Of a stretch of DNA of 64,000 nucleotides, positions 23,223 through 57,675 are shown piece by piece. Below the pieces are notes generated by a model. It saw only the letters and a list, made by a program, of their open reading frames with translations, was not told the origin of the DNA and did not search any database. The translations under genes and the position numbers were made by a program. The first letter of the stretch is position 1. Every line of letters starts with the position of its first letter. Source of the stretch: Amoebophrya sp. A120 (lineage: Eukaryota > Protista > Dinoflagellata); assembly GCA_905178155.1 (NCBI GenBank), contig CAJINV010000001.1:2470089-2534088 (forward strand), written 5' to 3'.

Positions 23223-26200
23223 CTACCCGCCCACGTCCGACTGGTCACCCCCGCCCCCGTGGCTTGATTTTCTCGCCTTGGCATCTGCATCCGCTAGCGC
23301 CCGGTTCGGATCTCGGTAGGTGTAGAAGACGTAGATGTAAATCGCATCGGCCAGAATGTACATCAGAAACGCGAACCGAAACGGCAACCCCGCCGCGAAT
23401 CCCCTGGCGGTCGGATCGAAAAGCAAATTCGCGTACAGGTAGCAGCCGAACGCTTGAGAAATCTCGCTGGTGAGAGAAAAGAAGGAAAGGCACATTGCAC
23501 GCTTGTCCACAGGAAGACGCGCCGCAATGAAGGACGAGCTGTATTTCGTTTAATCCTATTTTCATATACGTTGGCAACGCTATGAGTACTTTCTTCAACA
23601 CTTATGCTATTAGTACAGCATGTTAAAAATGTCGGACAGAGCAAATTGCAACACCATGATCACAGAAAGACGATCTTGCTATCCCCAATTTTGATATGCA
23701 ATAGATACCGTATGCTCGCCAGAAACGCCAAGCAGTGCCTGATGATGTTCATGAAGACGAAAAACCGTCCGGAGTACGGCGCTTCCACCGTGTAAATCAA
23801 CTCGCAGGTCAAGTTGATACAGCACCCCAGGATCAGCAAACTTGCGTACCTTTCGTGCAGGGACGTTTCCGCTTCGCTGAACCGATCTGCGTGCGAACTG
23901 GACCAGTGATCGTCCGACACGGAATGCCGCGCCAAGGTGTTCAGGTTCGGCAAACTTCCAAATTTTTTCCGCGAAAACCCCCACGACCCCGCGGCGCCGG
24001 GTAGGCTGTTCCTTCGCAGCGCGGGTTTCCTGCTAGAACTGCCGGCGCCCGGCGGGCTCAAATCAGACCTAGTACTTCGCGGCGCACCGCGCGCAGACAT
24101 CGAACCGTTGCCTCCTTGAAGATGCTGAAAATGAACCCGGGGACGCGCACGTGGCTTGCTGCCATTCGCGCCGTCGTGAAACAGGCCACCAGCACCTTGC
24201 TCCAGATCATCCTCGTCCGCTGCTTCATTCTGCGGATAAACAAACCCGCCCGGGGAACTACGAGAGGAGTACAACGGAGCCAATCCGTGGTCTTCTAGCA
24301 GGTCCGAGTCCCGCGTTTCATTCGGGTCTTGTTTGGAGACGCGGCGGAGTTGCTGAAACGCTTCCTGTTCCGGCTCTTCCGTGGGGCCCCTGTAGTTCTG
24401 GTCTTTGGACGACTTTTTCATGATCAAACCCGCTGCGGTGGAAGAAGTTTCTTTCGAACTTTTACAACTCTGCTGGATCTTCCTCATCGCGACTGCCTCT
24501 CCAGCGACTTCCGGATCGACATCAGTAGTTCTAGACGTCGTTGTACAACCTGCAGATGATAAAGGTTCCGAGTCTCCGTCCGGGTAGAACATTACGATTT
24601 GCCCGGCCGATTCCGTCCCTCGGTCGTCCCCCACCGGATCGCGTAGGGGTGCTTCATCACTGCTGTTCACGGAAATTTGAATCACGTTGCGATTTTGTCC
24701 GCGCGCGCTTGAAGTTCCGCTCGGCGCGTTTGAGCGAGCGGTTGAAAGTGGAGACGTTTGTTGAGCGATGGCACCGTCTATCGCACTACTCCCCTTCACC
24801 ATTCCGTCACTCAATTGCTGGTGTTCGATCTGGTTTTGTTGTTCCTGATGGATGTTCAACCTGGTGAAATCGTAGTCGTCTTCCGGGGAACTCGAAACAT
24901 TCAGTGCGTACTTCTCATTTTCCGCGTCGTCGAGCAGAATCACCTTCACTTTCCGCTTCCCATCCTTCCCCCGCCGTTCAATCTTCCGCAAGTTTCCGTA
25001 CAAAACCAGAGGGGCGGCGCAAAGCGCCGCCAGGTTCACGACCATCATACAAGCGGACATGAACTCCAGATCGCCCTGGTGCCAGTTCCATACCGCAATC
25101 GAGTAGGAAGAGGTGATCTCGCTCATGCAGGTCGCCAACGTGATATGAGAGTGCACAAGACCCCGTCCTCCAGTTCATTTAATTATACCGCACGAGCAGC
25201 AATACAGGCATCGGCAACAATGCAGATTTTGCATGATAAATTGGTGCGGCGCTATTTCGGCTGCCAGGAGAACCTGTGATGCAGATATGGCCAAGAGGCT
25301 AAAAGTGGACCCGGTGCCTTGCATGACAAATGAGGGGGAGTGGCAGTTGTGCACTCTCATACGTGAAAAAAAAGCACTGCACCGTCCAGAGCTGGATAAA
25401 GTTGCTGGATTCGAGGAACTATCAACTGCAAAAATGTCTGGGTCTGGAAGAATTCATGTTTGTCATGCTTGTCTGGCATGGCTCTTAAATCTGTCATGCA
25501 CGTTACCCAAGAGCTCCGTCTTTCTGTGCTGCAGAGCCGCAGTTTGTCATGCAGAATAGGCAACACCTGGGAGCTTAGAAACTTGTCATGCTGAGCCACC
25601 ATTTGTAGCCTCATCATGACACGCCACCCAGCATGACAAGTTTCCAGACCCAGATATTTTTGCATTTGATAGGAACAACTTCACGTACGCGTTGAACATG
25701 TCGCCGAAATAATTGGTCCACGCCACGACGTCGTAGAGGGCCCTTTGGCAGCAATTCATACGTGATCGGGTTCGTTTCAAAACCAACACGCCTTTGTTGC
25801 CCGTTGCTGTACTAATATCGTCCGCGCTTGCACTAGAGGGGCGGAAACTGCCGTCGCCGGAATTATCATTCGACGTCGTCCCGAAGACACTCAAGACGGA
25901 GGAAAACACTTGCGACACTACGCTGGTGCTGTCCGAAAGGATCGCCTTCTCAGCCTTGCTGTCGTCCCTGGAGATATTAATAAGGTTAGAACTATTTATT
26001 CCGTCAGTATTGTTCATCTGGACAGACGAGCTCCTTTTTGTGGTCGTGTCGTCCGGGGAAGTATTGTTCTGACTCGAAGCTGCAAGAACTTCTTGATCGC
26101 CGTACGATTTGTTCGCGTTTGGACGCCACCGGGAGTAATGTGATGCAAGAAAAAAACTGTGTGTGATGCAGAAATTTCAAAACAGTTACACTTGTCATGC

Positions 26201-29200
26201 TCGATGAGATGCATGATCGGCTGGCTTCCTATGTGTTTTCCCTTCCTATCTGCGCATAACAAGTTTTTCCTGTCATGGCAGACAAACTTGTGATGCTGTT
26301 TTCCCAAAAGACTTACACTATCACTAACACAGTTTTTTTCTTGCATAACTGTGCGTGTCGGGTTAATAATCCCTCCCGCTCCAGTTCCTCGGGGTCCGAC
26401 TCGACATTGATCCAATCGTGGATGGAAATCTGCAGGGTTTCCTTTAAATGGTTGGACACGCAGACCAGTAAAACGGAGTAGAGCAACGCCATGGTGCTGT
26501 ACAAAGCGGGGAAATCCGTGAACTCGTTTTCGAGCAAACTGGAGGAAACCAGACCCGACACCAGAACGCAGATCTGGGTCAGGATGTCCAGCAAAGCGAA
26601 CACCAGCACCCGTTCGTTGCCCAGCGAGGTCGCGTCGAAAATCATGGAATGGAAGGCGATGAAACTAGTTTTGAAAAAACCGCGGACCAGGTACGCGAAC
26701 ACAAGGAGGAGCAATTCTAAATGATCCGTCACCCAATCGCCGAACTTTTGGAAGAAGTTCTTCTCCGCGTGCGGTGTCTGGAGGCCCTGCTGCTGCTGAT
26801 TGGGCTTGGCTTGCTCTCCCTTATTGAACGTCGCTCCGCTCGTCGCCTTGGCCGCTTCTTGAACCATCTGCAGGTCGTGACTTTGCTTCATCACCGGCTT
26901 CGGCGGTGGTTTCGCGTCGGCTTTGCTGTTTTTGTGTGCAGCAGCGTTTATTTTCGCTTCAGCTTTATTATTCTCAGCACTCCCTGCGCTCGAACTTGTT
27001 TTGTCACTCGCGGGAGCGGTTTTTGCCTGGTCCTTTGCTGTAGTTTCTGGCGCCATATCATCCGCTTGTGGGCGCGCACTCGGACCACCTGCAGCATTTC
27101 CTTCTCCTGGTGTGCCTTTCGGTTCTTTCTCTGCGCGTTCGGGCTGCGCCGTGTTTTTGTTCGTCCCACTACTTGCTAATGCTGTTGGCCCTGCTCCTGC
27201 CACACCGACCTGCTTATCGCTCCCAGCCTCGGTACTTGTTCCCGCGCTTGCAGTGTCAGCATTCGCAGACTCCTTCTCCTTCGCTTCCGCGTCTGCGTCC
27301 TGGATTACCTTCGTCTCCTCGTGTGTCTCCTTCGCTTCCCGTACGACTTCCTGCGGCGCGGCCCGATCAGAAAACAGTGCCGGCTTGAAAACGTCCGCTG
27401 TCAGTTTAAGTTTCTGCCGCGGAGTCTCCGTGGCTTCCGGCGCTGCCGACGTTTTTTCACTCTCTTTCTCCGCGGATGGTGAAGGTTGGGGCTCCGCGGG
27501 CTTATCTTTTGTGGTAGAAGATGTTGTTCCGGCTGTTGCTTCTCCTGGTGGCACGGCAGCCGCAGGTACAGCTGCGTTGGCAGCCTTTGTTACATCTGCA
27601 GCTTGCTCCGTCACGGTAGTACCTGTCTGTTTTTGTTCCCCGACCGGCGCCGGCGCGGCGGCCTGCTGTTGCACTTCAGGTTCTTTCTGCGCTGCCGGTG
27701 CCGCTTCTCCGGCCGCTGCAGTCTTTGTCACAGCGGCTGTCGCCGGTAGTGCGAGATCATCTGCTGCGGCGGCGGTAGCGGCAGACGCAGGAGCAGGCTC
27801 GGCAACGTTACCCTTCGATAGGTCAGTTGTGTCTTTGCTTGTTTCTTGTTCCACCAACATGTCAGTACTTTTCTTTACTTCCAAATTATCATCCCCACCA
27901 GCGGTGCTTGCCGCCTGTTTCAAAGGCGCTGCTCCACCTTCACCCTCAAAAACTGGAAGTTGTTCAGCGCTTGTTCCTGCCAACCACGAACTGCCCTTCC
28001 CTTCTCGATTCTTCCCGTCGGCGAGTGGCACTGCAGTTTCAGCGTGGCCATCGCTCTTTTTCTTCGTGATTTTCTGTTCCAGCTCCACGAGGGAAGAGAA
28101 AGATGCGCTGGATGAAGACGAAGATGCGCTACTTGCGGCTGCTGCTGCTGCGATGTGGCTCGCGCCGCCCGCGACAGCCGTTCTTACGGCTGATCCCTGC
28201 AACGATCTTCCACTGTTCACCTCGGTTGTTTCTATCTCCGCTCGCAAGCCCGCACTTCTCGCCGCTTGCTCCTCGATCGTCAGAGTGTGGCCCAGATCGG
28301 AGCCCCAAATTGGGTCCTTTGATAAAGCAGACGAGCCTAAGTACACCAGTTTATCGTTCGCCGAGGGGGCCACCCACAGGGCGATGACGAGTAGGATCAC
28401 GTAGTAGAAAATCAAGCCCCAGATCGCCAGCACCAACATGTATTTCCGCCCCTTCTTGTCGCACAAAACGCCAAAGGCGGGGATAGAAATCGCGTGCGCA
28501 CAGGACATCAGGCAGTCTAGGATTCCCTTCCGCTCCTGCGCAACGCGGATTACCGTGTTCACGTCCCCGCAAAAGAAGGAACCCGTCCAGTTATCGTAAG
28601 CCGCCTGCTCCTCCTGCTGCTTCTTCGTCTTTATTCCGGACGCGGGATTCCCGTTCCGTGGGGTTATTGCGTCTTTGGTTTTTTCCAAGTGTCGCTGCGC
28701 TGTTTCCGTTTTCGAAATTTCTGTTTCCGTTTTTTCCTTTACCTCCAGTTGGTGCTCCGTGCCAATCCTCGTCGTTTCTTGGAGTCTATTTTCATGGTGA
28801 TGATGCATTTCCAATTCCAGGGTCAGAAACGAAGAAGACGAAAAGCCTTGCTGTGGTGGCGTTAGTACCGCTGCGCTGCTAGTAGTACCGCCAGAACCAG
28901 ATCCTGAAGCAGCACTTGTTCCCACGTCAGGATTCGCACCCGCTGTGACGAGCACCCTTGAGGCATCCATGGTCCCCGACGGCGCGTTCGTGCTAGAAGA
29001 CGACGTCGTTGCCACATTGGCCGTGCTACTCGTCGGGGTGTCGCAGATCACCAGCGTCCGCAAGAACGGCAAAAACAGCGGCCCGGCTGTGCTGTCCAGA
29101 ATCTGCATTGCCAGGTAGCACGCGTAGATCGGCCACACCCCCTTCGGAATCATGGAAGCCAAATTTCGGCACCGCATGCCGAAGTTGTGCGCCGCGCCCC

Positions 29201-29261
29201 GAACGCCATCGCGGCAGCGCGCGGCGTAGGCGTGGGGACCGGTGCCGTAGGTTTTGGGCAT
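23223..29261 (-). CDS. Major facilitator superfamily transporter (~1,725 aa) with very long low-complexity loops; 3 TIR introns plus 1 GT-AG intron (23539-23708)
   Basis: Motif A FGVLCDKKGRKYML, many hydrophobic helices, and IR|SSFIAARLPVDKRAMCL near the C-terminus. The spliced CDS is 5178 nt. Confidence 0.78.
25144..25361. mobile_element. Introner-like TIR element, family C
   Basis: TIR TATGAGAGTGCACAA...TTGTGCACTCTCATA, DR CGTGA. Removal gives QCFFFT|LATCMSE. Confidence 0.88.
25420..25671. mobile_element. Introner-like TIR element, family A (interior inverted relative to the 22306 and 49365 copies)
   Basis: TATCAACTGCAAAAATGTCTGGG...CCCAGATATTTTTGCATTTGATA, DR GGAAC. Removal gives YVKLF|LESSNF. 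Confidence 0.92.
26142..26347. mobile_element. Introner-like TIR element, family D
   Basis: (G)ATGCAAGAAAAAAACTGTGT...ACACAGTTTTTTTCTTGCATA, DR AATGT/ACTGT. Interior is the approximate reverse complement of 57357-57566. Removal joins TRHA to YSRWRPN in frame. Confidence 0.88.
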
Positions 29262-30109
29262 GATGATCTTGATGCTGAGGGGTCAATAGATGATGCGACT
29301 TTACCGATTCATACACGAACCATCACGCGTGGTTCTCTCGAAAGAACGCCAGAAATGTCGCCACGGCCCCGTTGTGGCCCTCTACTGGTACTGATACGAC
29401 CGCCAGAAGGGATATATAGAAGAACTCGGATCAGTTCCATCATCAAGATCAATCGAAGTGTAATGCCATGCGCTCTCTCGAACGACAACGAAAACGATTG
29501 CAATTGAAGAATCGAGAATGACGACAGTAGGCTACCCCGAGCTCGCTCGACAGATGAGAACGATTTACGACTTTTCTTTTCAGCAATACGATGATGTGAA
29601 ACGACTGTGATGAAAGCACACTTGGAAATGGAACAAGCAGAATGCTCCTGCTGCAAAGAGCCCTAGAATCGCCTCGATTTTTTATTTTCTGGGTGGACTA
29701 GTTTACACACAAAAAAAGCACAAAGTTTTATTCGCGTTGCAGAGCTTGAATGGTGAATGACTACGTGACCCGGGGAGGCATAGCATTTATTGTGTCGAAA
29801 TTTTCAACCCCTTGCGTGCACAAGAAGGCGACAAAAATGGAGAGTTCGATCAAGTGAGAATGCGGGGACTGACAGATACTTACACACAGAAGTCAGGTAC
29901 CATGCAAGATACTAACAAATGCGTGCTTGAAAATAACAACAAGGTACAGAACATGTAAAACAACTCAACACATCTGGTACAAGTGGAAAAATTTCGTCCA
30001 GGTTCAAAAAAACCCTCTGTCTCACCTCTGGTGACAGCTTGATGAAAAGTACATTTCACAAAACTTACATTTTCTTTTACTCTATCAAGGGCATACTTGC
30101 CTCTTCCCC

Positions 30110-34144: not shown

Positions 34145-35707
34145 TCATCCCATGACGTTGGTCCAACGAAACAGCGGGTTATTCGTATGTCCCGGGACCG
34201 CGGCAAATTTCCCGGACACCATGGCGTCACCGGCCAATCGATCGACGCGGTCGTTCCCTGGGTCCCCGGAGTGTCCCGCGACGTACTCAAACTTCAAATC
34301 CGCCTTCTTCATCGCTGCCTGATGCGCCGCGCGTGCCTTGTTCACCAGCTGCAAGTTCTTATGCGCTTTCTTCTCGCCCGTGCCGACGCCGGCGGCATAG
34401 GAGGAATCGTAGAGGACGAGGATTTTCGGCCTCTTACTCTGCGTCGACCCAGGATTTGCATTTGCAATTGCATTCAAAACTACTGTACCACAAAAGCAAT
34501 CGATCCACAGCATGGCCTCCGCAAAGCCCGTCAGTTCCCCGGTATTGTTAGACGCCACCTCGGCTCCCAAGTCCATAAACTTCTCGAGGTTGGAGAGATT
34601 TGTTTTTCCTTTACTAACGACGACCGGGCCGGATAGATCCACTATGTGATTCCGGTGGCTCTCTTGGACGATTCGCTGCCGGGTTTCCGGACTGTCGGCG
34701 TGGTTGTCCCTGTTCGCGAAAATCGAAACGCCCCAACCCGCGCGGGCGTTCGCACCCGCAATGTTCATGTTGCTGCCGCCGGACCCATCGAAGTAAATGT
34801 AGAAGTGATAAACTACTGAACCTGCAGTAGAGGACGACACGGCTGACGCCGGAGCAGCTTGAGGCGCTCCGAAAATTGAGCCGCTATTAAACGGCAGCGG
34901 GGCCGACCCAAACGCCGTTGCTGGGGCTCCTGCTGCTGGAGGCTGCAAACCAGAAGGTGTTATTCTCGCTCGCTTTGCTGAGTCTCCTTCGCTCCCGCTT
35001 TCCGCTTTTCTCTTCCGGCAATACTGCTGAAATCGCTGCACTTGCTCCCCGCAAATCCAATTCGCGTAGCGCACGTGATTTTCAAACACTTGTTTGAAAG
35101 ACAGCCCAGCATGCTCCCCAGCTTCTATTCGCTCCGACCCTCCGTCGTCTAAATTTAGCCCTTGCAGATTCTCCCGCGGGCGTTTCAACGACGATGCTGA
35201 CGAGGCCGCTGAAGAGGCCGATGATACTCCACCTTGCGGTTGATTGTTATTCATTACACCATTGTTCATCCCAAACTGCGACGTATTGGGCACGGTATTC
35301 GGCCGCGCGGCTTGAAACCCGGCTGAAAAGCCAAACCCGTTCGCTACGGATCCGCTGTTGCCGCCGAAGGAAGCTGTGCCAAACCCAAAGTTCGATGCTT
35401 GATGCTGGAACCCAGCAGGTGCAGCTGCTGGTGCGGCTGCTGTTGGTGCTGTGCCCCCATTCCGCTGGCGCGCGACGAACGCGAGAAAACTGGTCTCCGC
35501 CGCTTTTGCCTTGCTCGGGTCGCCTTGAAAGAGAATCCCCCGGGATTTCGGGTAGTAGTTGAGCTTGTACCCTAAGTGCTGCGACCCGCTCGGAACCAAA
35601 ACGCCGGCCGTCGGCTCGTCCCATTGGACCTCTTTGATTTTCTGGTCCTGCCGCAGCCATTGTTCAACCTGGCCCTTGTCGTAGGGGGAGATCTTTTTCA
35701 GGGCCAT
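34145..35707 (-). CDS. Ribonuclease HI domain protein with N-terminal accessory domains, intronless
   Basis: YIYFDGS...AGWGV...SNNTGELTG...LYDSSYA...YVAGHSGDPGNDRVDRLA contains the full D-E-D-D catalytic set and the GHSG motif. Likely start MALKKISP. Confidence 0.88.
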   Translation of the reverse strand: MALKKISPYDKGQVEQWLRQDQKIKEVQWDEPTAGVLVPSGSQHLGYKLNYYPKSRGILFQGDPSKAKAAETSFLAFVARQRNGGTAPTAAAPAAAPAGFQHQASNFGFGTASFGGNSGSVANGFGFSAGFQAARPNTVPNTSQFGMNNGVMNNNQPQGGVSSASSAASSASSLKRPRENLQGLNLDDGGSERIEAGEHAGLSFKQVFENHVRYANWICGEQVQRFQQYCRKRKAESGSEGDSAKRARITPSGLQPPAAGAPATAFGSAPLPFNSGSIFGAPQAAPASAVSSSTAGSVVYHFYIYFDGSGGSNMNIAGANARAGWGVSIFANRDNHADSPETRQRIVQESHRNHIVDLSGPVVVSKGKTNLSNLEKFMDLGAEVASNNTGELTGFAEAMLWIDCFCGTVVLNAIANANPGSTQSKRPKILVLYDSSYAAGVGTGEKKAHKNLQLVNKARAAHQAAMKKADLKFEYVAGHSGDPGNDRVDRLAGDAMVSGKFAAVPGHTNNPLFRWTNVMG

Positions 35708-36263
35708 AATTTTTTTCTTATGGGGAGAGATGGGACTTAGAACGACTGCGCAAAACTTGGTGAGGAAAAGCGAAAAAGAATGAAGCGACAACTCCAGATC
35801 AGATTACAATGATCTTCAAGCAGCCTACGACTGGCACTTCGAAATCGAAATCAGCGAGGGTCTTCCAACATAAAAAAAATGTCATCCGCTTCGTACTAAC
35901 TCTTGCGTCCGGGCAGGTACTGAGTTTTTGATGATCTTCAGAAAAGTTCACGATAAAAAGCTGATCCATATGGAATCACGTACTTACCAGCCAGATCTTT
36001 ATCTTCAGCAACAGCGTGACATCTTGTAGATCGGCTCTTCGTACACGTTGCATGTCTTCGTGCAGCAGTAAATAAATTGCGCTGCAAACGAAAACACAAA
36101 ACACTTCCAAATTGCACCATCACGTCGCACGTCCACCAAACCACTCTGTCATTCTGTGTTTCTATTTGCTTCGCAAGCGAAGAGGCAAAAGCCAAAGCCC
36201 AACGACATTTATTTCTGTGTACAACGTGGATCTGGAACTGGATACCTCAATTGAACCAAGCCC

Positions 36264-38112
36264 TCAGGATTCCAGCGCTTCCCGCACGGCTTTGCAAAAT
36301 TCCTTGGGAGAAAACAGCATTACGGAGTGGTCGCCCTTCCCGGTCGGAAAGACCTTCAAGCTTTCCGCGCCCACCCGTGTCGCGAGCAAGGCGCTCCACT
36401 CCCACGGCAACACCGTGTCGTCCTCGGCGCAGATTACGTGTATCCTTACCGGCTCGGTCAATAACACCGAATTTATCCTTGCCCGAAAATCGTCGACAGG
36501 TATGGAGTTTTCGAAGACCGGACCCATCAGCAGATCCAAAGTTTTCGGCGGCTTCAGAACTTCCATCACATCGATCTGCGCGCTTGCTGCGGATAGCAGC
36601 ATGCGGAAATGCATCATTTCCGGATCTTTCTTGATCCACATCCGGACCCCCTCCGCCATGCGCGCATCCCGCGGCGCCGACCGGTACTGACTGCAAACGG
36701 CCGCAAATTTGTTCCCCGGGCGGCGGCGGCGGCGCGGGGGAGGCTCGGCGGGCATGGTTTCCGCAGTGGAATTATCAAATGTAAAAGTGTCTGGGTCTGG
36801 AAGAGTCATGCTGCTTCTGCATGACACAGAAGGTCTGGCATGGAAGCTCTAGCATCACAGATTTCGAGAAGCCTCCGCAATGCCGAATCCGCATGACAAA
36901 TCCCTGACTCTGGTGACAGAAAGTGGGAACTTTTGCTGCCTATGCATGGGAGATTTTTCTGTGTTCTGAAATGCGCATCACAAGTTTGCACTCTTCCAGA
37001 CCCAGACATTTTTACATTTGATAGGAATCCGAAGAGCCCGTGTCGCAGGAAACCTTGGACTATCCTATGTAAAAACGTACCCACCCCATAGTCAAGATGG
37101 GGAATCGGCTAGACAAATCCACAAGCTTTGGCTGTTTCGCATGACAAATTCGGACGCGTAGTGTAGTGCTGTTTGAGCTAGTTCAGCAGCATTACAGATC
37201 TAGTCTCTCATGCTGATTGGAGCATGACAAATTTCAAAACACCATTAGAAAATGCTTCTCATGGGGCTCCGCATGAGAAACATTTTAAGCCTGCAGATTT
37301 GCATGACAACTCTGGTGTGGGTACGTTTTTACTCAGGATATGGACTCCGCCTTGTTTTCCGCGTTCTCCTCCTCTTCATTCTCCTCCACCAGCAGCAACC
37401 GCTCCTTCACGTCCGCCAGCGTCCTATCGGCGTCGAAATCGGTGAAGCTGCCTATGGTTTTGCACTGCGACGTAAAGTAATCGACGAACCATTTCCATTC
37501 TGTTTCGTCCGAAAACTTCAAACCAAGAGCGGTAGAAACCAGGACCAAGGACGTTATCCTTTCCGGGGCGGCAAAGGTGGCCAACACGCCGACGAAACCC
37601 CCGTACGAATGTGCCACGATGGCGGTTTGGCCGACGTTCTCTGCATCAAGGATAGCAAGGAGGTCATCGGCGTAGTGCTGGGGCTTGAAATTCTCCAGAA
37701 TCGCGTCGCCCTCGCCGTCCAGGCGTGACGCACCCCACCCGCGGATGGAGACAGAGATGGTGTAGTATCTGGGTGATAATAGGAAGGTCCGCGATTAGCG
37801 TTGCTTGTCTCCCTCACACACTGCGTTGACAGAGATTGAAAAAGATCAATGCACAAAATCGAAAATGGAAAGAACAGCCGCCGATGAAATATCATCATCA
37901 ACTAAATACGTTTGCTGCCCACTTTCCGGCGTGACGGCGCCACCGGGGACGCTACTGCAGACAAAGTGCGGCGTGGTGCGCCACCAGGAGAGCGCATTGC
38001 CCCCCGCTCCGTGAATGAACGTTATTACCGGTGCGACGGCCCCATCGGCGAGGGTTTTCTTTCCCGAGACAAAGTATTCCAAGTCACAGTTCGTTCCACG
38101 GACAACGGGCAT
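36264..38112 (-). CDS. Alpha/beta-fold hydrolase (~388 aa); 1 GT-AG intron (37769-37909) plus 2 TIR introns
   Basis: FIHGAGGN, SIRGWGAS, nucleophile elbow VAHSYGG, CAEDDTVLP and GDHS catalytic His. The spliced CDS is 1167 nt. Confidence 0.85.
36773..37023. mobile_element. Introner-like TIR element, family A
   Basis: TATCAAATGTAAAAGTGTCTGGG...CCCAGACATTTTTACATTTGATA, DR GGAAT. Removal gives GSSDS|TAETMP. Confidence 0.92.
37061..37340. mobile_element. Introner-like TIR element, family E
   Basis: TIR TATCCT(AT/GA)GTAAAAACGTACCCAC, DR TGGAC. Removal gives NKAES|KVSCD. Confidence 0.9.
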
Positions 38113-39437: not shown

Positions 39438-39599
39438 TTTTCTACGCTGATTTATTAACGACTGATCGAGGCCACAGTAGCAGCACACGCGACGGGCAAT
39501 TCGAAGGAAACAGGGCAAGCAGAACAAAGAAAACAACAACTGCCTGTTGAGGACAACTTACGCGTGCCGTTCTCCTCTCCCTCTGGATCTGATGCGGAG

Positions 39600-44068: not shown

Positions 44069-45461
44069 TCACCCCATTATTCCGGCCGGTGAAGAATCCT
44101 GCTCGCCAAAAGCTTCGAGATTCACCGCGGGCGTCGTTGGGTCCGCGATTCCTCTTTCATCCATTTCCAAGACTTGCGCAAAGTCGCCGGAGGAAGATTC
44201 TTTGAAGATAGCCATCTGACTGTTGCCGTAGTTTACTTGGAGCATGCCGCCGACCTAGAAAAGTAGAATATGAATGACATGGTGCACTATTCTATGCGGT
44301 GGTAGTGCAGTAAGAAAACTGCCAACACACGACATTTTCTGGAAAACCGAGTATGTTTCTAGAGGTCACTTGAGTTCATCTTTGCGCCGTCCTGTCATTT
44401 GAAAAATCATACCTGTGAAAACTCGACGCTCCACACGGGCTTTCCCTGGAACTCCTCCCTGAAAAGCTTTACGGGCCGCCAGATGGTGTCACACCTTTGC
44501 CAAACGACCACCGTGCCATCCTTCGAGCAACTAGCGAGGATGTCAGACCGGTGTCCCTGGTAGGGTCGCCACGCGATCCCGGTTACCCAGTCCTTGTGCC
44601 CGGCCCCGCTGGACATGTCGACGTCCTCTCGAACCTAAAGTTGTCGTATTTTTGCACAGTGGAGCGGCATGCTTTGTACGCTCACCCAACCTTTCATGTT
44701 GCGACTGCGAGGTCTCATCACAGTGAAGAAAAAAAAACACACTTCTCGTACCCAGCTCCCATTCTTGAAGATCCACACCTTCACCGCGGCGTCTAACCCG
44801 CCGGTGGCGATTTTCGCACCCTCTAGCCCGTTCCCGAGTTCAAAGCAGCCCATCGGCGCCCAGCAAAGAGCGCGCACGCCACAGGGGTGTGCGAGGAAGG
44901 TGGTTCGGGTCCACTGGTCGCGTTCGTATTGGAGCAGTCCTACGTTTCCGTCGCTGCCGGCCGAGGCGAGCACCAAGCCGCACTCAAAAGGCGCGAACGC
45001 TACCTGGTTCACGCACGCCCTCGCTTGCTCGTCCTTGTATGCGAGCTGCTGGTCTTTCCAGATCAGGACCTGTTGGATTGGCGTCGTACGCGTTTTTGCT
45101 GCAGAAAATTTGAATTTCGCAGCATGAACAGGTTCAAACATCCATGTACTTATATGCAACGTCAAAGCATAATTTTGATTTTTTTCCAGATAATCAAACC
45201 TCTCTTCTATACCTGCTTATCATACCCGCAGCTGGCCAGCACCCCTGGGTATTTTGGGTGGGCCCAGCACACGGACCATACCGGTGCCTGGTGCCCCTTC
45301 AGCTCCGCAACGGCTTGCGGCCTGTCAGCGTTGGAGATGTCCCATATTCTCACGCTGCCGTCGTGGCCGGCTGTCGCTAATCTTCTGCCATAGTAATCCA
45401 GCTGCACGTCGTGAATCTGGCCCTCGTGCCCGGTCTCGATACGACCGATCGTTTGCGCCAT
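44069..45461 (-). CDS. SEC13: COPII/nuclear pore WD40 protein Sec13, multi-exon
   Basis: ETGHEGQIHDVQLDYYGRRLATA...LKGHQAPVWSVCWAHPKYPGVLASCGYD, and GHKDWVTGIAW. Confidence 0.93.
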
Positions 45462-48900: not shown

Positions 48901-50608
48901 TAGTAGTCAAGAAGTCCTCTACTTCTGGAAATGGGACCACAGGAGCCTGTCCGCGAAGAGCTGCAGCGGCATCGGAGGTTTTTGACTCGGCTTCCGCCGC
49001 AGTAGTGCCCGCCGCGGCAGGAACTTGTTCCGAAGGTATATTCCTGTCGTCCAGATCGCCACCATCAACTGCATCTCCTCCTGAATCAACAACATTTCCG
49101 GCTTCGCCTTCTTCAACAACAGGATTCTTCAGGTTCTCAACTCCTTCCTCCCCATGCGAGAGACTTGTACTGGTTTTCGACAGCAACAAACCAGGCTCCG
49201 CAATCCCTGACGCGCCCGTTTCTCCAGCGTTGGTAATATGCACGTACCGGTGCGCCGGTAAACTGGTGAACTCCTCCCGCGTCTGCACTTCTTCCAAAAT
49301 GCGCTTGCTGACGACCTTCTCCGCGACCTCTTCGAGCGGCGAAGACGACATCATCACGGCGTCATATGCATTGCAAATATGTCTGGGTCTGGAAACTTGT
49401 GATGCAAGGAAGGAAATAGCGACCACACTGTAATGCGCTGCCAAGCATGACAACTTTTTTCGTGGTTCTAAGTTGCGTACTCCGCATGACAAACTGCGTT
49501 CTTGCATGACAGACGAGAGGAGCTCTTTGAGGCCACGCAAGACAGAGTCCAGAGTCATGCCAGACTAGCATGACAAACCTCGCAATCTCCCAGACCCAGA
49601 CATATTTGCATTTGATACGTCAGGGTGGAGAACTTCTGCTTGGTCACTTCTTGGAAGCACCGTTTCGATCGCGGCGGTTATGGAGTCCTGCTCTGGTTCT
49701 TGTGCCACTGCAGCGACCATGGCGCCCGCAAGAGGAACCACCTTCTCCTCTGGGACGATCGTTAACGACGGAGAAGATGTTGCTCCGGCGACGACAACCC
49801 CAGCTGCTGTTACATCTGGATTCATCTCCTGTTCATAGTCCTCCTCGAAAAATTCTTGACTTGTTCTGTGTCTTTCCCGCCCGAAACTCTTCCGCTTGTC
49901 CTCTGCAGCGGGAGCTGCGACGAGAATGGTGTCTGGATTCATCTCTTGCTCATACCCATCGTCGAACTCTTGACTGTGCGGCCTCCGGCCTTCTCGCCCG
50001 AAAGAACTACTCTGCCGTCTGTTCACATACAAACCGTCTTGAAACACCACAGACCCTTCATACCGCGGAATTACGACGGGTTTGATATTTCCCCCATTCG
50101 CATTTCCGACTTTCACCTTCTCGCCGGATGAACTACTGCGCTGCTTCCGAGACCCACGCTTGCTCGACGTTCGTGAAGATGTACTAGTTTGTCTCGACGG
50201 CGGAGCATTTAGTACCCTGGGAGAATCCACGTAGATGCCGTGCGTCTCTCCGTGGTGAGCGTGCGGATGATCGTGCTCATAGATCCCGTCCGGAACGTTG
50301 TCATGCCCGTGCCACCACGGACTTGCATGCTTTTTCCTTTCGTCTTTTGCGCCGGTATCAACATCCTGTGCTGCTTCTGTGTCTTGCTCTACTGCATTTT
50401 CGTGCCCATTGGCATCTGGATCTCTTTCTCCCGCCTGCTCACCGGCTTCATCAAGCCCCTCTGGGGCAAACAGGAAAACCGGTTTTGTCGCGCAGGCTGG
50501 AACTCCACCGGCTGTCTCTTCGTCGCCGTAGAGCAGAGCCGAGCAAGACTTTCGTTTCTGCCGCAAAACTGGTACCTTCGAAAGGTTCACTTGCGATTGC
50601 AACCACAT
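45995..50608 (-). CDS. Large low-complexity/coiled-coil hypothetical protein (~1,450 aa), one TIR intron
   Basis: ORFs 49565-50659 and 45995-49558 join in frame after removal of the 49365 element (HPD|AVMMSS). Start codon uncertain. Confidence 0.65.
49365..49617. mobile_element. Introner-like TIR element, family A
   Basis: TATGCATTGCAAATATGTCTGGG...CCCAGACATATTTGCATTTGATA, DR CGTCA. Confidence 0.92.
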
Positions 50609-50982
50609 TTTATTTCCTCGGGAGAGCCCGAAAGAGGCGTCTTGACGTTTCTCGCACAAATAAACTTCAAAAAAACACTGCAGCGATCTTGATGTAAATC
50701 AAACCACAGTAGGCGATATTCGGCGGCGTGAAGGCAATCTTCTGAAATTGCGAAATCGAAATGCGAATGCGATACGACGATTGGCCGCTCGATTTCGGTT
50801 TCCCGCGCCCACGATTTTTAACGACAAAACCTCTTCTAGCCCCCGATACGAACACCAGAGAGACGCTTCTATTCGCGAATCCATCAAATAAACCTGTGCA
50901 GTTTCTGCTGTAAATGTTCTTCTTCTTTTTGTGTTGTGCGCCTTTCGAGCGTGTCCGATATAATCGTCCGTGCTATAATCTT

Positions 50983-53900
50983 TTACCTTCCTCCCCTTGT
51001 ACTTCGATTCTGCAGCTGTCGATTCGGAGCGCCACTTTCAAAAGTACTTGCGTTCTGCAAAACGCCCCCATCGCGCACCTCAGGAAGCAGCTGCTGGTGG
51101 CCACCACCAGCATCAGAACCGCCGGTATCTCTTGCAGCTTCTAGTGCTTTCATTCTCTTGTACTCAGCAATGGCGTCCTGTGCCTTGGGTCCCATCTGCT
51201 TTCTCGCTGCTCCAGCTGGACCTGCCCAAGCGACGCGGGGGCCGCCGACGCCACCGCTGTTCGCGCGTGGTCGCATGTCAGAGCCAGCACGCGGACGCGC
51301 GGGTGGTTGTTGGGCACTAGCTTCGGATGGGGCGCGGGATGCGTGGCTGGAAGGGGTGGCGGAAAATGTCGCGGAGAGAGCGGCTGTGATAAGTATTTGT
51401 TTTTGCGATTGTGTATCGAAGAACGAAAACATGATTGATCTCTATTCATGCATAGTCAAGGGAAGTAGAAGATTCAAGTTTTACAACAAATTCCTAAAAA
51501 CCCCACTCCCTACCTCTCGGCTGCTCTCTCCGCACCTTCTTCAGCTGCAGCCGTTTCATCTTCTTTTGACTTTGCAGAAATGCCGCCGCTGTCGATGCGT
51601 CCGTGAATCCCCATTCTTCCTGCACCTTCGCCAAAGCTGCTTCGAATTTGCTCGTTCGGTGCTGCGAACTTGTGGACGGGCGCGACAAGGATTGCGGTGT
51701 CTCAAGCGTCTCCGTCTGGAGAGAGTTCAAATCATCATCCAACCTTCTCGGTGTGATCTTGGCCTCTGTAGTAGAAGTCGCATGCTGCGCTAACCGAGCG
51801 CTGTTTAGATAGGGAGGATCTGGAGGAGGTTCCTGATTTGATACTTCTTCAGTCGCGGCCATAATATTCCGGTGCTCCTGCTGTTGCTGCTGCAAGTGCG
51901 GCGCGTGTAGTGTGAGGTGGCGCATCTGTGCTTGGAAAGACGAAGAAGATGCCGACTCGCTGGAGAAGGAGTAGGAATTATTTTCTTCCAAAGATGCCGA
52001 ATTCGAATGCGCATTCATCCCCGCGGACGAGGATGATGAACTGCTGCTGCCCGCACTAGCCAAGGAACCACCTCCACCGATTTTGCTCCCCACCAACGGT
52101 GGCAGTTTCACCGAAACTTTCGCGTGCGCGTCCCGCTTTCTCGGCTCCAGTCTTACGGCGGACGGCTCGAGAGTTCCTTGCTCTTGAAAGGTCGGTGGAT
52201 ATCTTGGTAGCTCCGCTTTGCTCACCTCGGGCTGTTTCACAAAGTTCACGTCTTTTTCTTTGTCTTTTGCGTTAACCGCGGAAAAGTGGAGTTGCGTCTC
52301 GTGCTTGACCGGAACTTTCAACCGCAGCATCTTCGGAGGTTTCGGCGCTGTCGGGACTGCTGCTGTTGACCCCATCGGTTCGTCAAAAAACTCCGCTTCC
52401 GTTGGTGGTGGCGCGGGATGTGCTGGTAGTGGTTCGGCTGGCTCCACTGCGGAGTCCGTCGTGTCTTCCGCAGGCAGTTCCACCTCAGAATTCCCGTTCG
52501 AACCCTCGTGCGAGGAAGAGAGGGGGGAAGACAACACCCGTCGGTCCGGTTCCCTGGCGAGCGTCTCCACGTCGAGGAAGTTGTCTTGCGGCATAAAGAA
52601 CTCCTGTCGCGCAGGCAGTTCGGAGTGATCAAGAACATCCTCATCTTCATCACTGTCATCTTCCGCTGCATCCACTACACTTATTTTCGGCCTCGCCGAG
52701 CTTGTGGCTGACATGTTCTTGTCGAGTTGTGGAGGATTGGACGGTGGATGATGACTTTTGTCTACTATTTCCCGCTCCGCATGATGTGCACCTTCGTTTG
52801 CCACTGGAACTGGCTCAACATCATGATCTGTACCCACCACCAGCATAGTGTTTTTACCAGCACAACCTGCGTGTTGTACAACTTTAGCCTCCTCTTCCCC
52901 CTCAACAACCTCAGGCGACGTGTCGAGAATCCCCGGAGACTCCTCTTTCACCGGTTCCAGCGTCGGTCGCCGACTAGCACGATTCGATCCGACAGCCCAT
53001 GCGTTTTTCGCCGAACGGGCGATAGTTTTCTTCGACGAAGTGGAAGCAGAACTACTTGTACTCGTGCTTGTTGTAATATCGGTTGTCCCATACAGCTCTG
53101 TAGATGAAAAGCTATCCTCCTCCACCGAATCCCCATCTTCCATTAGCGCTTCCACTTCTTGAATCGCGGTCTCCAAGCTCTTCAGCGTTTTTTCCGTTCT
53201 TTTCCTCGCTTTCCCCATGTCCGCAAACGGATTCTCGTACAGGGAGGCATCGTAGGTGAACTCGGACAGATCCAGTTCGGGAAGATCAAAATCGAGATCC
53301 GCGAGAAACACTTTACGGAGCTTCCTCCTGATCCGGTGACCACGGTACCACCTTTGGATGATAGACGCTGCGAATTTCCGAAGACTGGTCCGGTAAAGCA
53401 AAACTTTCTTCATTTTCCGCTGGATCAGCGTGATTCTACCGAGGTTTTTCACGAAATGCTGCCTTCTGTTCTCCGCTTTTGTCTCCTCGTACCACGTCCT
53501 CGTTTTTGTGCCGCGATAACAAGTTTGAATCTTCGTGCTCGCTTGAATCCGGGCTTTGCGAAAGGATTCCAGCTTTGATTGTAGACGTTCGAGGATGTCT
53601 TTTTGTGCGACATCAAGAACTTCTGTGCTGCAGCCAGTAGCTGGGTTGTTGTCCTTGACAACTGCTCGGATCGCCGACGGGAAATCAGCAGCGAACGCGG
53701 CAATTCCTGCTTGCGCGTCCGTGTCGAGAACCTCCGTCTTCAAAAATTCGACTGCTGTTCGGTATTGTGAAAAACGCACTTTCAACCGCTCAGCTTCGAC
53801 GACCTGCAACTCTTCGTCGATGTGGAGGGTTGCGATGGCGGTTGTCGACGACGGCAGTCCGGTACCATGATGATCATCCCCGAGGAAGTTGCCATCGAAG

Positions 53901-56900
53901 AACCGTATCGCTTGCGCGAGAGAATCTGCGAGGTTCGTGAAACTAGCGAAGCGGTCTTGCGCCTGCTGCTTTTCAGCGCTTCTAGTATCTCTGTTCAGAA
54001 AGTACGCGTCCCCCTTCTGCTGCTTGAAATCTTCCCCGTCCCAGCTTTTCAGACAGTCAACCGCGTTCAGGGCCCGCAGAACATGCCGGCGGTACCGCGC
54101 CGGATGCTTGCACAGCAAGACGTTTTGATTCGCCGACAAGTTTTTCAAATTCGGAAAAGCGGAGAGGCTCCCGGAAGGCAGCGCGGAAAACCTGTTGGCT
54201 GCGAAGTTGAGCGTCCGCAGGTTTGGGGCGAACAGGGGCAGGATTTCACTGAGTTCGTTCTTCGCGAGGTTCAGCTCGTACAAGCTGGGCAGAAATCGCA
54301 GCGAAGCCTTTTCCGCACGTCCAGACCCGATGCGGTTGTTTTCCAGATTTAATTCTTGCAAGCACAGAAAGAGCAAGTGTCCGATGGCCGCGATCTGGTT
54401 GTCGGCGAGATCCAACGCTGTCAAGAAGGGCAACCACCGGGAGAGCAAGAGTCCTGGAACTGCTTCAAGAGCATTTTTGCTCAAATCCAGCACTTCCAGC
54501 GCTTCGCAATCGCGGAGAAAACAGGTTGAGTCCAGGTTTTTGATTTTGTTGCTCCGCAGCACCAATCGCGACAAAGACGCTTTGCTCTGGCCGGTTGCTT
54601 CCGGCACCTTCTTGATCAGGTTGTGGCCAAAGTTCGCGGAGGACAGTCGCGGGCACCCGGTTTGCAAAAAATCAAAGTCCTTCAAAAAGTTGTGACTCGC
54701 GTCGACCGTCGCCAGGTTGACAAGCAGTTGCAGGCCGTTGAGAGTGCGCAAACCGGTATTGCGAAGCACGATGTGCTCGAGCATGGCGCAATGGAGGGCG
54801 AGTTTCTTCCCGACTTCCACGTCGGTAGACAAGTCTACGTTTTCGATCTGCAAAAACCGGACGTGGCGGAAATTGGTCAATTGGAGAGGTTCATCTTGCA
54901 ATAAATCTGTAGCTGCAGCGATTCTCAAAGCTAGCTTATCGTCGTTGCTGGAGGACTTTTTCTTCATCGCGGCCTTTTCAACATCTTCTGCTGCATGATT
55001 ATCCAAGTACGTCTTCCAGACGGCTACTGTGGAATTTTGGCTTTCGGGTCGGGGTCCGTTGATTTCTATTTCTTCTCTCCCCGGCGGTAGAGCCGGCAGT
55101 GCACCATTGAACAGAAGGGTTCCGCTATCCGTGTGAAACGACTTTATCGACGATCGCTGTTGGTGAAACACGTTCTCAGCAACCGAACGCACGACCCGGT
55201 CAGCCACGCGCGCGACGCGCTCTTTCACACGAAAAATCTGCGACCAGAAATCCCGGCTGAGAAATTTTGTGAAGAAAGAAGAACTTGTTTCCGACTTTGC
55301 AGCTTCTTCAACAACCTCATCCTCGAAGAACAGCTCATCCACACTGGAGCGCCCCGTGCTTCCTCCGCTGTTTCGCGGTGAGTAGTGACAGCGGTCGCTG
55401 GTCGGATGCGCAGCAGCTGCGTCTTGGTCTTGCCCCACCTGCTCTCGTCGTGCACGACCACTTGCGGAGCAGGTGAACTCTCGTTCTACTTTCCACGTCG
55501 CAGACAGTGCCAACCAGGAGTTCCGCCCGTTCCGTTCCCACAGGCCCATCCCTGGTTGCAAGATCTCGGCAATCCCAAACCGCGCATCCGCGTCTTCCGC
55601 GGCCATGCCCGGCCACTCGACAAAAATTCGCTTCTCTTGCTCCCGGAGCGTCGCGGCACGCAAATCCTCTTCCCGCATGCGGTCCTGCTCGCGCCAGGAG
55701 TAGATGTTGCAATTTCTCGCCTCTTCGTCCGCGATTTCCATCAAAACCCGCTCCCTTGCGCAGTTTTCGGATTCTCGCAAGTCAAACGCGGCAAAATCCT
55801 CCTTCAACATCTGTCTCCACTCGCGGTGCAGTGCTTCCCGCGTCAAACGCTGTTCCTCATCTCGCTCCCACTCCCGTATTCGCCCGGCCGCGCGATCTTC
55901 AAACGACATCCGACTGTGTTCCGCTTCTTTCGCTTCCTTCTCCTCTTGCTCCCGCAATCTACTGTCGGTGTCCGCGGCGAAAAACCGGGCTTGCTCGTAC
56001 TGGACTATCCTGGGAAAAAACGCCCCCACCCTGTAGTTAAGATTGGAAATCATGCTATACAAATCAAAAAGCTTTGGCTGTTGCGCATCACAAGTTTGGC
56101 CTCGTAGTGTAATCCTGTTCAGCTAGTTCACCAGCATCACAGATCTAACATATCACGCTGATTGGAGCATCACGAATTCCGAACCATGACCAGAAAATGC
56201 TTCCCATGGGGCTCCGCATGAGAAACATTTTCAGCATGCAGATTTGCATTACAACTATGGGTTTGGGACGTCTTTACATAGGATATGGACGCGACGGAAC
56301 TCCTCCTCGCGACTTCTCGCTTCCGCTTGCCTTTTTAACCGCAGTTCCGAAAGTTTTTTTTCCTCCTGTGCCTGCTTCTCCCGGAGCTGCTTCTGTTGCT
56401 CGGCTAACTTTTCGGTCAGTCCGGGGTCGTATGTAATAATTGCTTCGTCTGTTGTCCTCGTGCTTTCTATTTCTTGTTCTCCCCGTTCGCGAATGTTCGT
56501 GTCCTGACCATCTGCAAGAAAAGCGACTGGACCTGGAGCGAGAACAGGAACAGTACTCCGCGGCAGGGCCCAGAAACTTGTTTGATCCTGGTCCGGAATT
56601 TCCTTGTCCCGTTCCAAGGGTCGGCGCTGGATCTGGGCCACGTACCAGGGTACTAGCGATTTTTCCGTGTTATCATGATCCCCACCGGCTTGTTCTGCAA
56701 TTGTGTCCACGTTCAGCTCGCTTTCGTTTGCAGAAGAATTCTCCCCGGAGCCGTGGTCGCCGGCGGTATCCGCGACGAAGTTCTGGTCATGATTTTCGTG
56801 GTCTTGGTCCCGACGCTTTTCCTTCCCAAGCAGTACTTGCTCTTCTGCCGGCGCTGGTAGAAAAGCATCATCTTCTTGCGCTTCTTCCGGCTTTACATCC

Positions 56901-57675
56901 ACAAGAATTTTTCCTGCATCTTCTATATCTTCGCTCGTCGTGGCGCGTTCAACATTTCGCTGCTCTTGCGCCGCGGCAAGAACAGCCTGCTCCTCTTCTT
57001 CTGTCAGCTCTATCCTCTCTGGCCACGCGACGACCGGCACGGTTTTGAAGAAATTCTCCCGAAACACCGCGGCCTCGTCCTTCGTAAAGTCGAAGAGCTC
57101 CACGGCTTCCGCCAGGGCCGTCTCGATTCTGTCCTCGGAACTCTTGACTTCGTACTTGGCTTCCAGTCCAGGGACGGTAATATCTCCCGCCCGTGGGTCA
57201 AACCGCTCAGCAAAACCCAACTCGGCGAACGCAGATTGCAATTGCTGTGCGGCGTCGAACTTGTTTTTTGGAGTGCTTCCCTTACTGCTGCTTTTTTCAA
57301 CATGATCGTCGTAGTTGCGGATATTGGCCAGGCGCCGGTAAAAAGTTTCGGCGTCTTATCCAAGAAAAAAACTGTGTTAGTGTAGGTCTTTTAGGAAAAC
57401 AGCATCACAAGTTTGTCTGCCATGACAGGAAAAACTTGTCATGCCCAGATAGAAAGGGAAAACACGTAGGAAGCGAGCCTATCATGCATGTGGAGCATGA
57501 CAAGGGTAACTGTTTTGCATACTCTGCATCACAGACGTACACTTACACAGTTTTTTTTCTTTGATACGTCTTCTTCCTCCTCCTCAGGAATGTCGTCGCC
57601 CATCGCTGCGAGCTCCCGCTCCAGCTCGGCAGCGAAATCCATTGCGTCATCGAATTTGTCATGCTGCGCAGCCAT
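50983..57675 (-). CDS. Leucine-rich repeat and IQ-motif protein (LRRIQ1-like, ~2,020 aa); 2 TIR introns plus 1 GT-AG intron (51384-51513)
   Basis: About 10 LxxLxLxxN repeats, IQ motifs ASTKIQTCYRG and ASIIQRWYRGHRIRRK, and an acidic/coiled-coil N-terminus. The spliced CDS is 6063 nt. Confidence 0.8.
56006..56285. mobile_element. Introner-like TIR element, family E
   Basis: TATCCTGGGAAAAAACGCCCCCAC...GGGACGTCTTTACATAGGATA, DR TGGAC, interior colinear with 37061-37340. Removal gives FRRV|QYEQARFF. Confidence 0.9.
57357..57566. mobile_element. Introner-like TIR element, family D
   Basis: TATCCAAGAAAAAAACTGTGT...ACACAGTTTTTTTTCTTTGATA, DR CGTCT. Removal gives EEEEED|AETFY. Confidence 0.9.

Follow-up and report, generated by a model that had tools for sequence, protein, structure and literature searches.

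How can an element be cut out of a transcript whichever way round it lies? The question is raised by a stretch of 64 000 nucleotides from contig CAJINV010000001.1 of Amoebophrya sp. A120 (the window), in which copies of the same element families were noticed in both orientations within genes on one strand. The original prediction took this arrangement to mean removal independent of orientation.

Elements and host genes

Proteins and exons of the window match Amoebophrya sp. A120 proteins at 99% identity, which at the sequence level identifies its source as A120 or a near-identical strain. Four introns reading CT..AC on the plus strand are skipped in RNA contigs, so the genes that host the elements are minus-strand genes. 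When trained on loci elsewhere, a coding model assigned 15 of the 17 window elements to the minus strand, its two misses scoring near zero; the original prediction had likewise placed both family D hosts on this strand. The element at 22306, with repeats alike at 3/5 positions, lay outside the automatic set.

9794..19000, minus strand: host gene (ends approximate), carrying seven RNA-verified elements and four GT-AG introns
12550-12748, 14018-14227, 15060-15238, 15468-15640, minus strand: GT-AG introns of this gene, from RNA contigs
7324..7654: family F element, absent from the original finding
12044..12306: family A1, orientation a; RNA joint 12038>12307, 268 nt (element + 5)
13335..13630: family A1, orientation b; RNA joint 13329>13631, 301 nt
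16742..17005: family A1, orientation b; RNA joint 16737>17007, 269 nt; repeats differ at sense position 5
17221..17496: family A1, orientation a; RNA joint 17215>17497, 281 nt
17565..17843: family A2, orientation b; RNA joint 17560>17845, 284 nt; repeats differ at sense position 5
18110..18423: family C; RNA joint 18104>18424, 319 nt; repeats differ at sense position 2
18608..18873: family A1, orientation a; RNA joint 18602>18874, 271 nt, in run X3 only
22306..22556: family A2, orientation a; repeats differ at sense positions 3 and 4
25144..25361: family E; orthologs P0004/P0005 collinear across the site
25420..25671: family A2, orientation b; orthologs collinear across the site
36773..37023: family A1, orientation a; interior comparison and coding-strand model
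37061..37340: family B, same orientation as 56006
49365..49617: family A2, orientation a; interior comparison and frame test
56006..56285: family B; interior comparison and frame test
58708..58969: family A1, orientation a; frame test, with a weak downstream score

Comparison of element interiors reproduced the proposed orientation split of family A1 (12044, 17221, 18608, 36773 and 58708 against 13335 and 16742) and of family A2 (22306 and 49365 against 17565 and 25420). The elements are families repeated across the genome, with a DNA depth far above that of their flanks, and comprise 13 families of 2–90 copies and 49 singletons. A larger set of 259 copies came mostly from a second assembly, with 68 of 312 locus elements dropped for want of a confident strand, together with two duplicates; 0 of 2614 pairwise edges between its orientation assignments were inconsistent. 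Orientation relative to the transcript was 50:40, 24:18, 13:8 (family D), 9:5, 4:4, 5:3, 4:3, 3:3 and 2:2 by family, and no bias was detected in the 259 copies (chi2 4.9, df 9, p=0.84, leaving aside one family at 4:0 with fewer than four members after de-duplication).

Removal from RNA in both orientations

The RNA evidence comes from one gene, in assembled contigs from two runs of one study whose status as RNA is a program's guess; a run of raw reads (X13) yielded just 11 placed reads. Within this gene the contigs, one of which spans 11700–19991 in a single piece of 8460 nt, omit seven elements, all between 12044 and 18873: six copies of family A, which between them represent both orientations, and one element of another family. 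The skipped length equals the element plus one 5 nt repeat in 7/7 elements listed. The original prediction had named two outcomes as refuting: splicing of one orientation only, and cryptic canonical sites peculiar to each orientation. Neither occurred, as family A is skipped both ways in one gene and none of the seven RNA-seen introns reads GT-AG whatever the register (one allows a GA-AG reading).

Two explanations would place the origin of these joints outside RNA processing. Excision from DNA in the transcribed life stage, whether of the ciliate IES kind or as precise transposon excision, would be blind to orientation, leave one copy of the repeat and need no splice signal. Yet 0 contigs of DNA run X1, the one run examined, hold any of the seven joints, so that the empty site in DNA that marks a ciliate-type IES is missing from this run, and a contig covering 17223–18134 crosses two elements with a depth close to that of a single copy; assembled contigs do drop rare variants. 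The intron class had also been called from RNA against the same genome (PMC7789003), and excision from DNA seems very unlikely to us. As for an artefact, reverse transcriptase might jump the hairpin between the direct repeats and create joints never made in the cell, and the combination of hairpin and direct repeats has been described as a mark of such switching (PMC4176328). Against it stand the coding consequences: the 11 joints applied to the host gene give a stop-free frame of 2174 aa, as opposed to at most 903 aa with the frame-breaking elements kept, and the removal length is not a multiple of three in 171/259 copies. The retained form was not assembled in RNA where exon depth was 810 (depth in the element-only bin 17321–17831 was about 0.75), and orthologs are collinear across three sites in all, with P0008 running across that of 22306. 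We consider an artefact of this kind highly improbable.

Reading frames extend the result to other loci. With independent frame calls, the flanking frames rejoin only on exact removal in 43/45 confident cases among 312 examined, 20 of them one way, 13 the other and 10 without an orientation call. This is a cleaner test than a result of 76/76 that rested on strand calls from spliced sequence. A lax 'any open frame' test (open in 130/185 at +5, vs 65 at +4 and 56 at +6) was weak, and independent frame calls were used instead. Very probably, removal takes place at the RNA level and is indifferent to orientation. The skipping of both orientations in RNA supports the need for a symmetric signal that the original prediction had inferred.

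The inverted family D pair

The pair that first suggested inversion consists of the following copies.

26142..26347: family D, first copy; repeats 26137-26141 and 26348-26352, 4/5 alike
57357..57566: family D, second copy, inverted relative to the first; perfect 5 nt repeats 57352-57356 and 57567-57571

The claim that they are approximate reverse complements was confirmed by global alignment, with 178/197 aligned bases identical as reverse complements vs 120/198 on the same strand, and the spurious peptide falls, as described, on the minus strand of the first copy and the plus strand of the second. The interiors, trimmed by 40 nt per end, score 180 on opposite strands and 44 on the same strand, with a shuffled maximum of 24. 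Fold z scores are -5.8 for the copy at 26142, whose transcript-3′ end finishes in C rather than A, and -5.2 for that at 57357. Reading frames suggest that both copies are removed from transcripts, since flanking frames rejoin when 211 nt are taken out at 26142 and 215 nt at 57357. Ortholog blocks lie on each side of the first copy in the frames that removal joins, with 0 stops; the junction itself falls in a stretch across which orthologs do not align. RNA-contig depth in the bin of this copy is at most 1, with no joint among those listed, and a search for a relative of the exon hosting the second copy found none.

Ends, direct repeats and cut register

The inverted ends follow TAT-N7-AAA: in 261 copies, bases 1–3 are TAT in 99–100% (partly a requirement of the element search) and bases 11–13 are A in 88–95%. 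TAT and AAA hardly vary between unrelated families, and bases 4–7 often mismatch. An exact 5 nt direct repeat flanks 205/286 candidates, each other length from 3 to 10 being exact in at most six, and 266,788 shuffled bases held 0 structures combining a TIR with a 5 nt repeat. At each of its five positions the repeat has the base composition of the flanks (p 0.26–0.96), and by this comparison no target-site preference was detected. Window copies had suggested a polar signal in the form of a C bias at the fourth repeat position, but the larger set did not bear this out (66/222, p=0.51), and the proto-splice-site target NNAGG, at 10/218, showed no excess over composition. TIRs, a target duplication of fixed length, a lack of coding capacity and occurrence in both orientations make the elements likely MITE-type DNA transposons, judged by sequence. 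A cognate transposase was not found in A120 according to the text of PMC7789003; TIR-flanked elements with LTR-like ORFs are present in A120 (PMC12130899).

The elements do not have the GT/GC...AG ends of U2-type introns. Among perfect-repeat copies, 16/222 could be read as GT-AG in any register and 29/222 as G(T/C/A)-AG. Neither AG nor any other preference was found at the 3′ end, and no enrichment of a strand-polar 4–6-mer on the transcribed strand survived correction for 120–525 tests (best p 1e-3); a polar branch point was thus not found.

The imperfect repeats narrow the cut. The RNA joints at 16742 and 17565 put it at or before repeat position 4 and that at 18110 after position 2 or later, which together give a cut after base 2–4; at the 22306 junction the annotated protein P0007 reads Pro, which demands a cut no earlier than after position 3. 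At both ends, we infer, the cut follows the third or fourth base of the repeat. In Table S4 of PMC7789003, T stands second in each of the nine predominant non-canonical A120 pairs, a pattern reproduced among registers 0–5 by register 4 only; these pairs are HISAT2 placements within ambiguous repeats, and such placement may favour GT-like starts. The four RNA-verified canonical introns start GTAC or GTAT. Stop-codon cases separating register 3 from register 4 were absent among the loci, and a Pfam search of 18 flanks for the same distinction gave one weak match.

Mechanism of removal

Both symmetric features put forward by the original prediction exist: a terminal stem and a subterminal motif. 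Folding predicts stems in either orientation, with sense and antisense folding equally (p=0.39). Mismatches show no excess of G-U wobble (169 G-U vs 172 A-C), and covariation between the arms is mixed, with an excess at bases 6, 10 and 14 and none at 4, 7 and 15 by statistics that ignore relatedness. RNA-level selection on the stem lacks support from these wobble, folding and covariation tests. An Rfam search returned 0 matches. The motif, GCAT(C/G)ACA, lies in mirror image about 42 nt inward of each end; it or its reverse complement occurs in 239/259 elements, at 10.4 per kb vs 0.9 per kb outside.

We give about even odds (roughly 0.5) to the account, taken whole, of introner elements with mirror-image ends read by a modified spliceosome that lacks U1. 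MITE-like elements would have inserted in coding exons either way round, to be lost from RNA along with one copy of the target duplication. Insertion would be DNA-based, because reverse splicing of RNA should yield one orientation only. The modified spliceosome would read the mirror-image ends in place of GT and AG; with a cut after base 4, every intron would begin N-UAU and end a fixed 4 nt beyond the stem, a start resembling the GUAU/GUAC donors of the host with the first base free. The stem may hold the two ends together and so substitute for U1, which is not reported for A120 in the text of PMC7789003, where 83/89 spliceosome proteins and U2, U4, U5 and U6 are. Inversion would not affect removal because flipping alters the interior only. 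Removal in both orientations, as originally predicted, stands, but the symmetry is no argument against the spliceosome, since an inverted repeat offers the same 5′ and 3′ words both ways.

The same symmetry might be exploited without a spliceosome, by a structure-reading endonuclease that cuts the stem foot within each repeat and an RNA ligase that joins the exons, a scheme put forward for the non-canonical introns of euglenids and diplonemids. The lack of splice dinucleotides in any register and of a polar motif fits this reading, as do the stems predicted in both orientations. Euglena provides parallels in a short inverted motif offset by 3 nt at the 5′ end and 5–6 nt at the 3′ end (PMC12501133) and in introns reported as circles, not lariats (PMC11282704); RNase III-like or tRNA-splicing-like routes have been proposed (PMC12621601). 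Several results pull the other way: G-U is not in excess over A-C, the outermost pairs are predicted open (probability <0.1) in the RNA-verified introns 16742 and 17221, and the near-invariant TAT and AAA suggest that sequence is read, although a transposase would conserve both too. We hold the nuclease and ligase route as possible but doubtful. It is improbable that the operative signal is instead GCAT(C/G)ACA, the copy at the 3′ end serving as a branch point or protein-binding site. Its presence in most elements, common to families with unrelated interiors, would suit such a role, but at 7/8 or better the 3′ copy is not better kept than the 5′ copy (180 vs 191 of 259), and family D (11 and 9 of 21) has the motif in weak form, as do small families (16 and 17 of 59). 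Subterminal repeats serve as transposase sites, and this would account for the motif equally.

How the more than 60% of A120 introns that are non-canonical are removed is stated as open in PMC7789003. Our results make it unlikely that the elements are mobilized by reverse splicing or that each orientation relies on cryptic sites of its own. The removal signal must reside in the parts that mirror each other, and the cut is held to a narrow register, behind the third or fourth base of the 5 nt repeat. If an intron functions wherever and whichever way it inserts, the wide spread of the elements would be explained, and such an intron, if transferable to another host, would be portable and scarless. 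More tentatively, a second, non-spliceosomal mRNA splicing pathway may read transposon inverted ends and cut at a fixed offset within the target duplications; if so, any exonic insertion would be removed scarlessly whichever way it lay, and the cell would have, at the level of RNA, a general antidote to a class of transposon present in tens of thousands of copies.

Relation to known introns

The class is already known. Introner elements of A120 have been described with TAT, seven variable bases and AAA, direct repeats of 3–5 nt (5 bp in the legend of Fig. S19) and a length of about 240 nt (Farhat et al. 2021, PMC7789003). The elements here belong to it by host (from protein identity), inverted ends, repeats, families, non-canonical ends and removal from RNA, which for family D is read from frames; the hairpin model is also shared. 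To that text we add unbiased orientation, a constant 5 nt duplication, removal of element + 5, the lack of target preference and the cut after base 3 or 4. Element orientation is not addressed in the main text and supplement of PMC7789003, figures aside, where the passages shown on 'orientation' concern gene blocks, and our literature search found no report of orientation symmetry for Amoebophrya.

Introners that make introns either way are known from Polarella glacialis and Aureococcus anophagefferens (bioRxiv 10.1101/2020.10.14.339549), likewise with target duplications and splice positions drawn from element end and duplication. Those introners use G(T/C/A)...AG sites, have constrained duplications (such as GHN6 and NNAGG) and are biased to one orientation, whereas in Amoebophrya G(T/C/A)-AG is confined to the 29/222 copies above, duplications resemble background and bias was not detected. 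Euglenid and diplonemid introns share non-canonical, paired termini, boundary direct repeats, a proposed MITE origin and a signal offset from the cut sites (PMC12501133, PMC12621601, PMC11282704). They differ in their short CAG/CTG motif and purine first exon base, as opposed to a long TIR with TAT-N7-AAA, in their reported circular products and in belonging to an unrelated lineage; the euglenid signature N3-CDG...CHG-N5-6|R was not found in our end consensus, and the repeat has no purine preference. The introns of Fritillaria borealis, also MITE-derived, with TIR, target duplication and an adapted spliceosome, are a spliceosomal precedent for non-canonical introns of this origin (PMC11282704); they prefer AG-AC/AG-AT ends and an exonic TAC context, unlike those of Amoebophrya.

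Differences between the two ends

Conservation of the two ends is equal, with 327 deviations at the 5′ end vs 336 at the 3′ end over bases 1–13. At the extreme terminus, one of three positions examined for asymmetry, the 5′ T is kept in 259/259 copies and the 3′ A differs in seven, four of these changes being A-to-G, which still pairs with U.

Structure and orientation of the elements

Self-BLAST and repeat scans recovered the predicted transposon-like introns, named here by start coordinate, and brought the total in the window to 18 elements of at least seven interior types. Each is immediately flanked by a 5 nt direct repeat, starts with TAT and ends with ATA, with one exception that ends with ATC on the transcribed strand, and no structure combining terminal inverted repeats (TIRs) with a 5 nt repeat occurred in 266,788 bases of shuffled sequence. 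One element was absent from the original prediction:

7324-7654, element of family F, with eight copies in the larger set described below (orientation 5:3)

The family D copies D26142 (26142-26347) and D57357 (57357-57566), held in the original prediction to be reverse complements, share 178 of 197 aligned bases when one copy is reverse-complemented, as against 120 of 198 when neither is, their interiors scoring 180 versus 44 (shuffled maximum 24). The peptide quoted in their support is present in both, on opposite strands, and interior alignment bears out every orientation proposed for family A, which comprises two interior types (A1 and A2) with a common TIR. Long hairpins are predicted on the transcribed strand of D26142 (z −5.8) and D57357 (z −5.2).

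The elements belong to a real, known class. Exons at 44638-45216 and 21838-22080 each match a protein of Amoebophrya sp. A120 at 99%, and the window elements have the features that PMC7789003 gives for A120 introner elements, namely inverted repeats in which TAT is followed by seven variable bases and then by three A, together with direct repeats of 3–5 nt, so that the class is already published. In the same paper U1 snRNA went undetected, the minor spliceosome is described as absent and the splicing mechanism is left open. Introners in both orientations are reported for Polarella and Aureococcus, where they have canonical-type sites and an orientation bias (bioRxiv 2020.10.14.339549). The introner search described in PMC9860276 allowed opposite-orientation copies. 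In our literature searches the orientation of elements in Amoebophrya was nowhere addressed, nor did term searches find it within PMC7789003 (with supplement), PMC12130899, PMC11282704, PMC9860276, PMC12501133 and PMC12621601; figures and datasets may still bear on it. Complete orientation symmetry in Amoebophrya is a modest and apparently unreported property, which sharpens the open question of how the non-canonical introns of A120 are removed.

Removal in both orientations

Four sequencing runs were compared with 11700-27000; assembled contigs may drop rare variants. Runs X3 and X6 are two samples of one study whose RNA status is a software guess; their contigs skip four CT..AC introns, which supports that status and places the host gene on the minus strand:

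9794-19000, minus strand, host gene encoding a 2174 aa protein

Among the joints listed (contig junctions that skip a stretch of the window), X3 and X6 also skip seven elements, a and b denoting opposite orientations:

12044, 17221 and 18608, A1, orientation a
13335 and 16742, A1, orientation b
17565, A2, orientation b
18110, other element

The length skipped is the element plus 5 nt in all seven, and the 18608 joint is absent from the X6 joints listed. Orientation-independent removal, as originally proposed, is supported for family A in these RNA contigs of one gene, and no register yields GT-AG ends for any of the seven. Run X1 behaves as DNA (depth about 27, even outside repeats, with introns retained) and is possibly the very sample from which the window was sequenced; its contigs contain none of the seven joints, and one passes through both 17221 and 17565. 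In the RNA contigs, a bin consisting mostly of these two elements had a depth of about 0.75 beyond the 64 nt exon versus 810 for exons, so the retained form was assembled for neither orientation, with the same caveat on rare variants. Applying 11 joints gives the 2174 aa reading frame; with elements kept, the longest is at most 903 aa.

When flank frames were called separately, removal of the element plus 5 nt rejoined 13 of the 15 window elements tested, both D copies among them, scores being weak at the other two (7324 and 58708). At D26142, the ortholog P0011 aligned in different frames on the two sides (−3 upstream, −1 downstream), which are brought together with no stops once 211 nt are taken out; orthologs are also collinear across element sites 25144, 25420 and 22306. 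The coding frames thus suggest that the D copies are removed from RNA.

Very short exons lie between neighbouring elements at 17497-17560 (about 64 nt by RNA) and 37024-37060 (less than 40 nt). The TIRs of a family A pair could pair across 17497-17560, and this exon is still present in an RNA contig. TIR sequence joined to foreign flanks in X3, X6 and a further run, X13 (loose ends at 12044, 13632, 17224 and 18606), points to some element-containing transcripts or DNA carry-over at other loci.

Orientation in a larger sample

The family A TIR pattern matched 182 stretches, spread over 10 of the 64 parts of a metagenome collection, a single assembly, JACKZZ01, accounting for all 181 loci among the matches listed. 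It has element families in common with the window at up to 96% identity; BLAST matches between the two fall on elements only. A total of 337,784 non-redundant bases from these loci contained 312 elements, and a coding model called the host strand for 244 (15 of 17 window calls were correct, and 209 of 212 calls agreed within their contig), which with 17 from the window, minus two duplicates, gave a final set of 259. Orientation to the transcript was unbiased across nine families (p=0.84; 50:40, 24:18, 13:8 for family D, 9:5, 4:4, 5:3, 4:3, 3:3 and 2:2), and where a contig carried several copies of one family, both orientations were present in 17 of 26 such groups. In a stricter frame test, for which the model learned solely from window exons and each flank received its own strand and frame call, 43 of 45 confident cases rejoined on removal of the element plus 5 nt and two disagreed on strand; 76 cases were left out as too short and 191 as too weak. 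Removal at the JACKZZ01 loci is therefore probable on sequence grounds. The assembly also contains other short families with a different inner TIR (L026:2822-2941, L030:666-785 and L142:614-733) and 49 singletons with TAT-N7-AAA ends.

Removal signal and candidate mechanisms

Repeat composition matches the flanks, with no target-site preference, and only 16 of 222 copies offer GT-AG in any register, which places the signal outside the target site. No strand-specific interior word was found. Both symmetric features originally suggested, a TIR stem and a mirrored internal motif, are present: TAT and AAA words that pair in 96–98% of copies, an inner stem, and subterminal GCAT(C/G)ACA about 42 nt from either end. 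Arm bases 4, 5 and 7 are frequently mismatched (paired in 147, 164 and 100 of 259), and selection on the stem at the RNA level was looked for with null or mixed outcomes. The sole polar hint, a weak one, concerns the terminal base, which is conserved at the 5′ end of all 259 copies and altered at the 3′ end of seven. Assuming one register common to all copies, mismatched repeats in RNA indicate a cut no later than base 4 of the direct repeat (16742 and 17565) and after base 2 or later (18110), and the annotated, predicted protein at 22306 would put it after base 3 or later.

Transposition is likely DNA-based, given the TIRs, the constant 5 nt duplication and the 50:50 orientation. For removal, our main reading, with a probability of about 0.5, is a candidate adapted spliceosome cutting after base 4, whereby the intron would start N-UAU and end 4 nt past the stem. 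RNA-verified canonical host introns start GTAC or GTAT. Register 4 alone reproduces the predominant non-canonical pairs of A120, in which T is always second according to PMC7789003; that published table may reflect aligner preference. In this register, the family B introns (37061 and 56006) would start N-TATCCT, which resembles the U12-type donor consensus.

A candidate hairpin nuclease acting with a ligase is a weaker contender; it would agree with the finding of neither a 3′ signal nor a branch signal, and parallels to it are reported from euglenozoans. It is doubtful that the internal motif, mirrored though it is, constitutes the operative signal. Excision from DNA, rather than RNA, is more improbable again, and template switching as the origin of the joints is the least credible of these readings.

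Other features of the window

The 2174 aa host protein contains, by eye, many short Asp-Trp-containing repeats, and its gene is abundant in X3 (depth 810). Pfam scans of four of its exon ORFs gave no match for three and a weak match below the cut-off for one. A further ORF, either a host enzyme or a retroelement remnant, carries an RNase H domain (PF00075, E 1e-9):

34148-35803, minus strand, 552 aa ORF

A GT-AG-looking intron, bridged by the annotated protein P0007, begins GTAT and contains fragments like the subterminal motif; it is possibly an old element decayed to a canonical intron:

about 22079-22237, minus strand, GT-AG-looking intron
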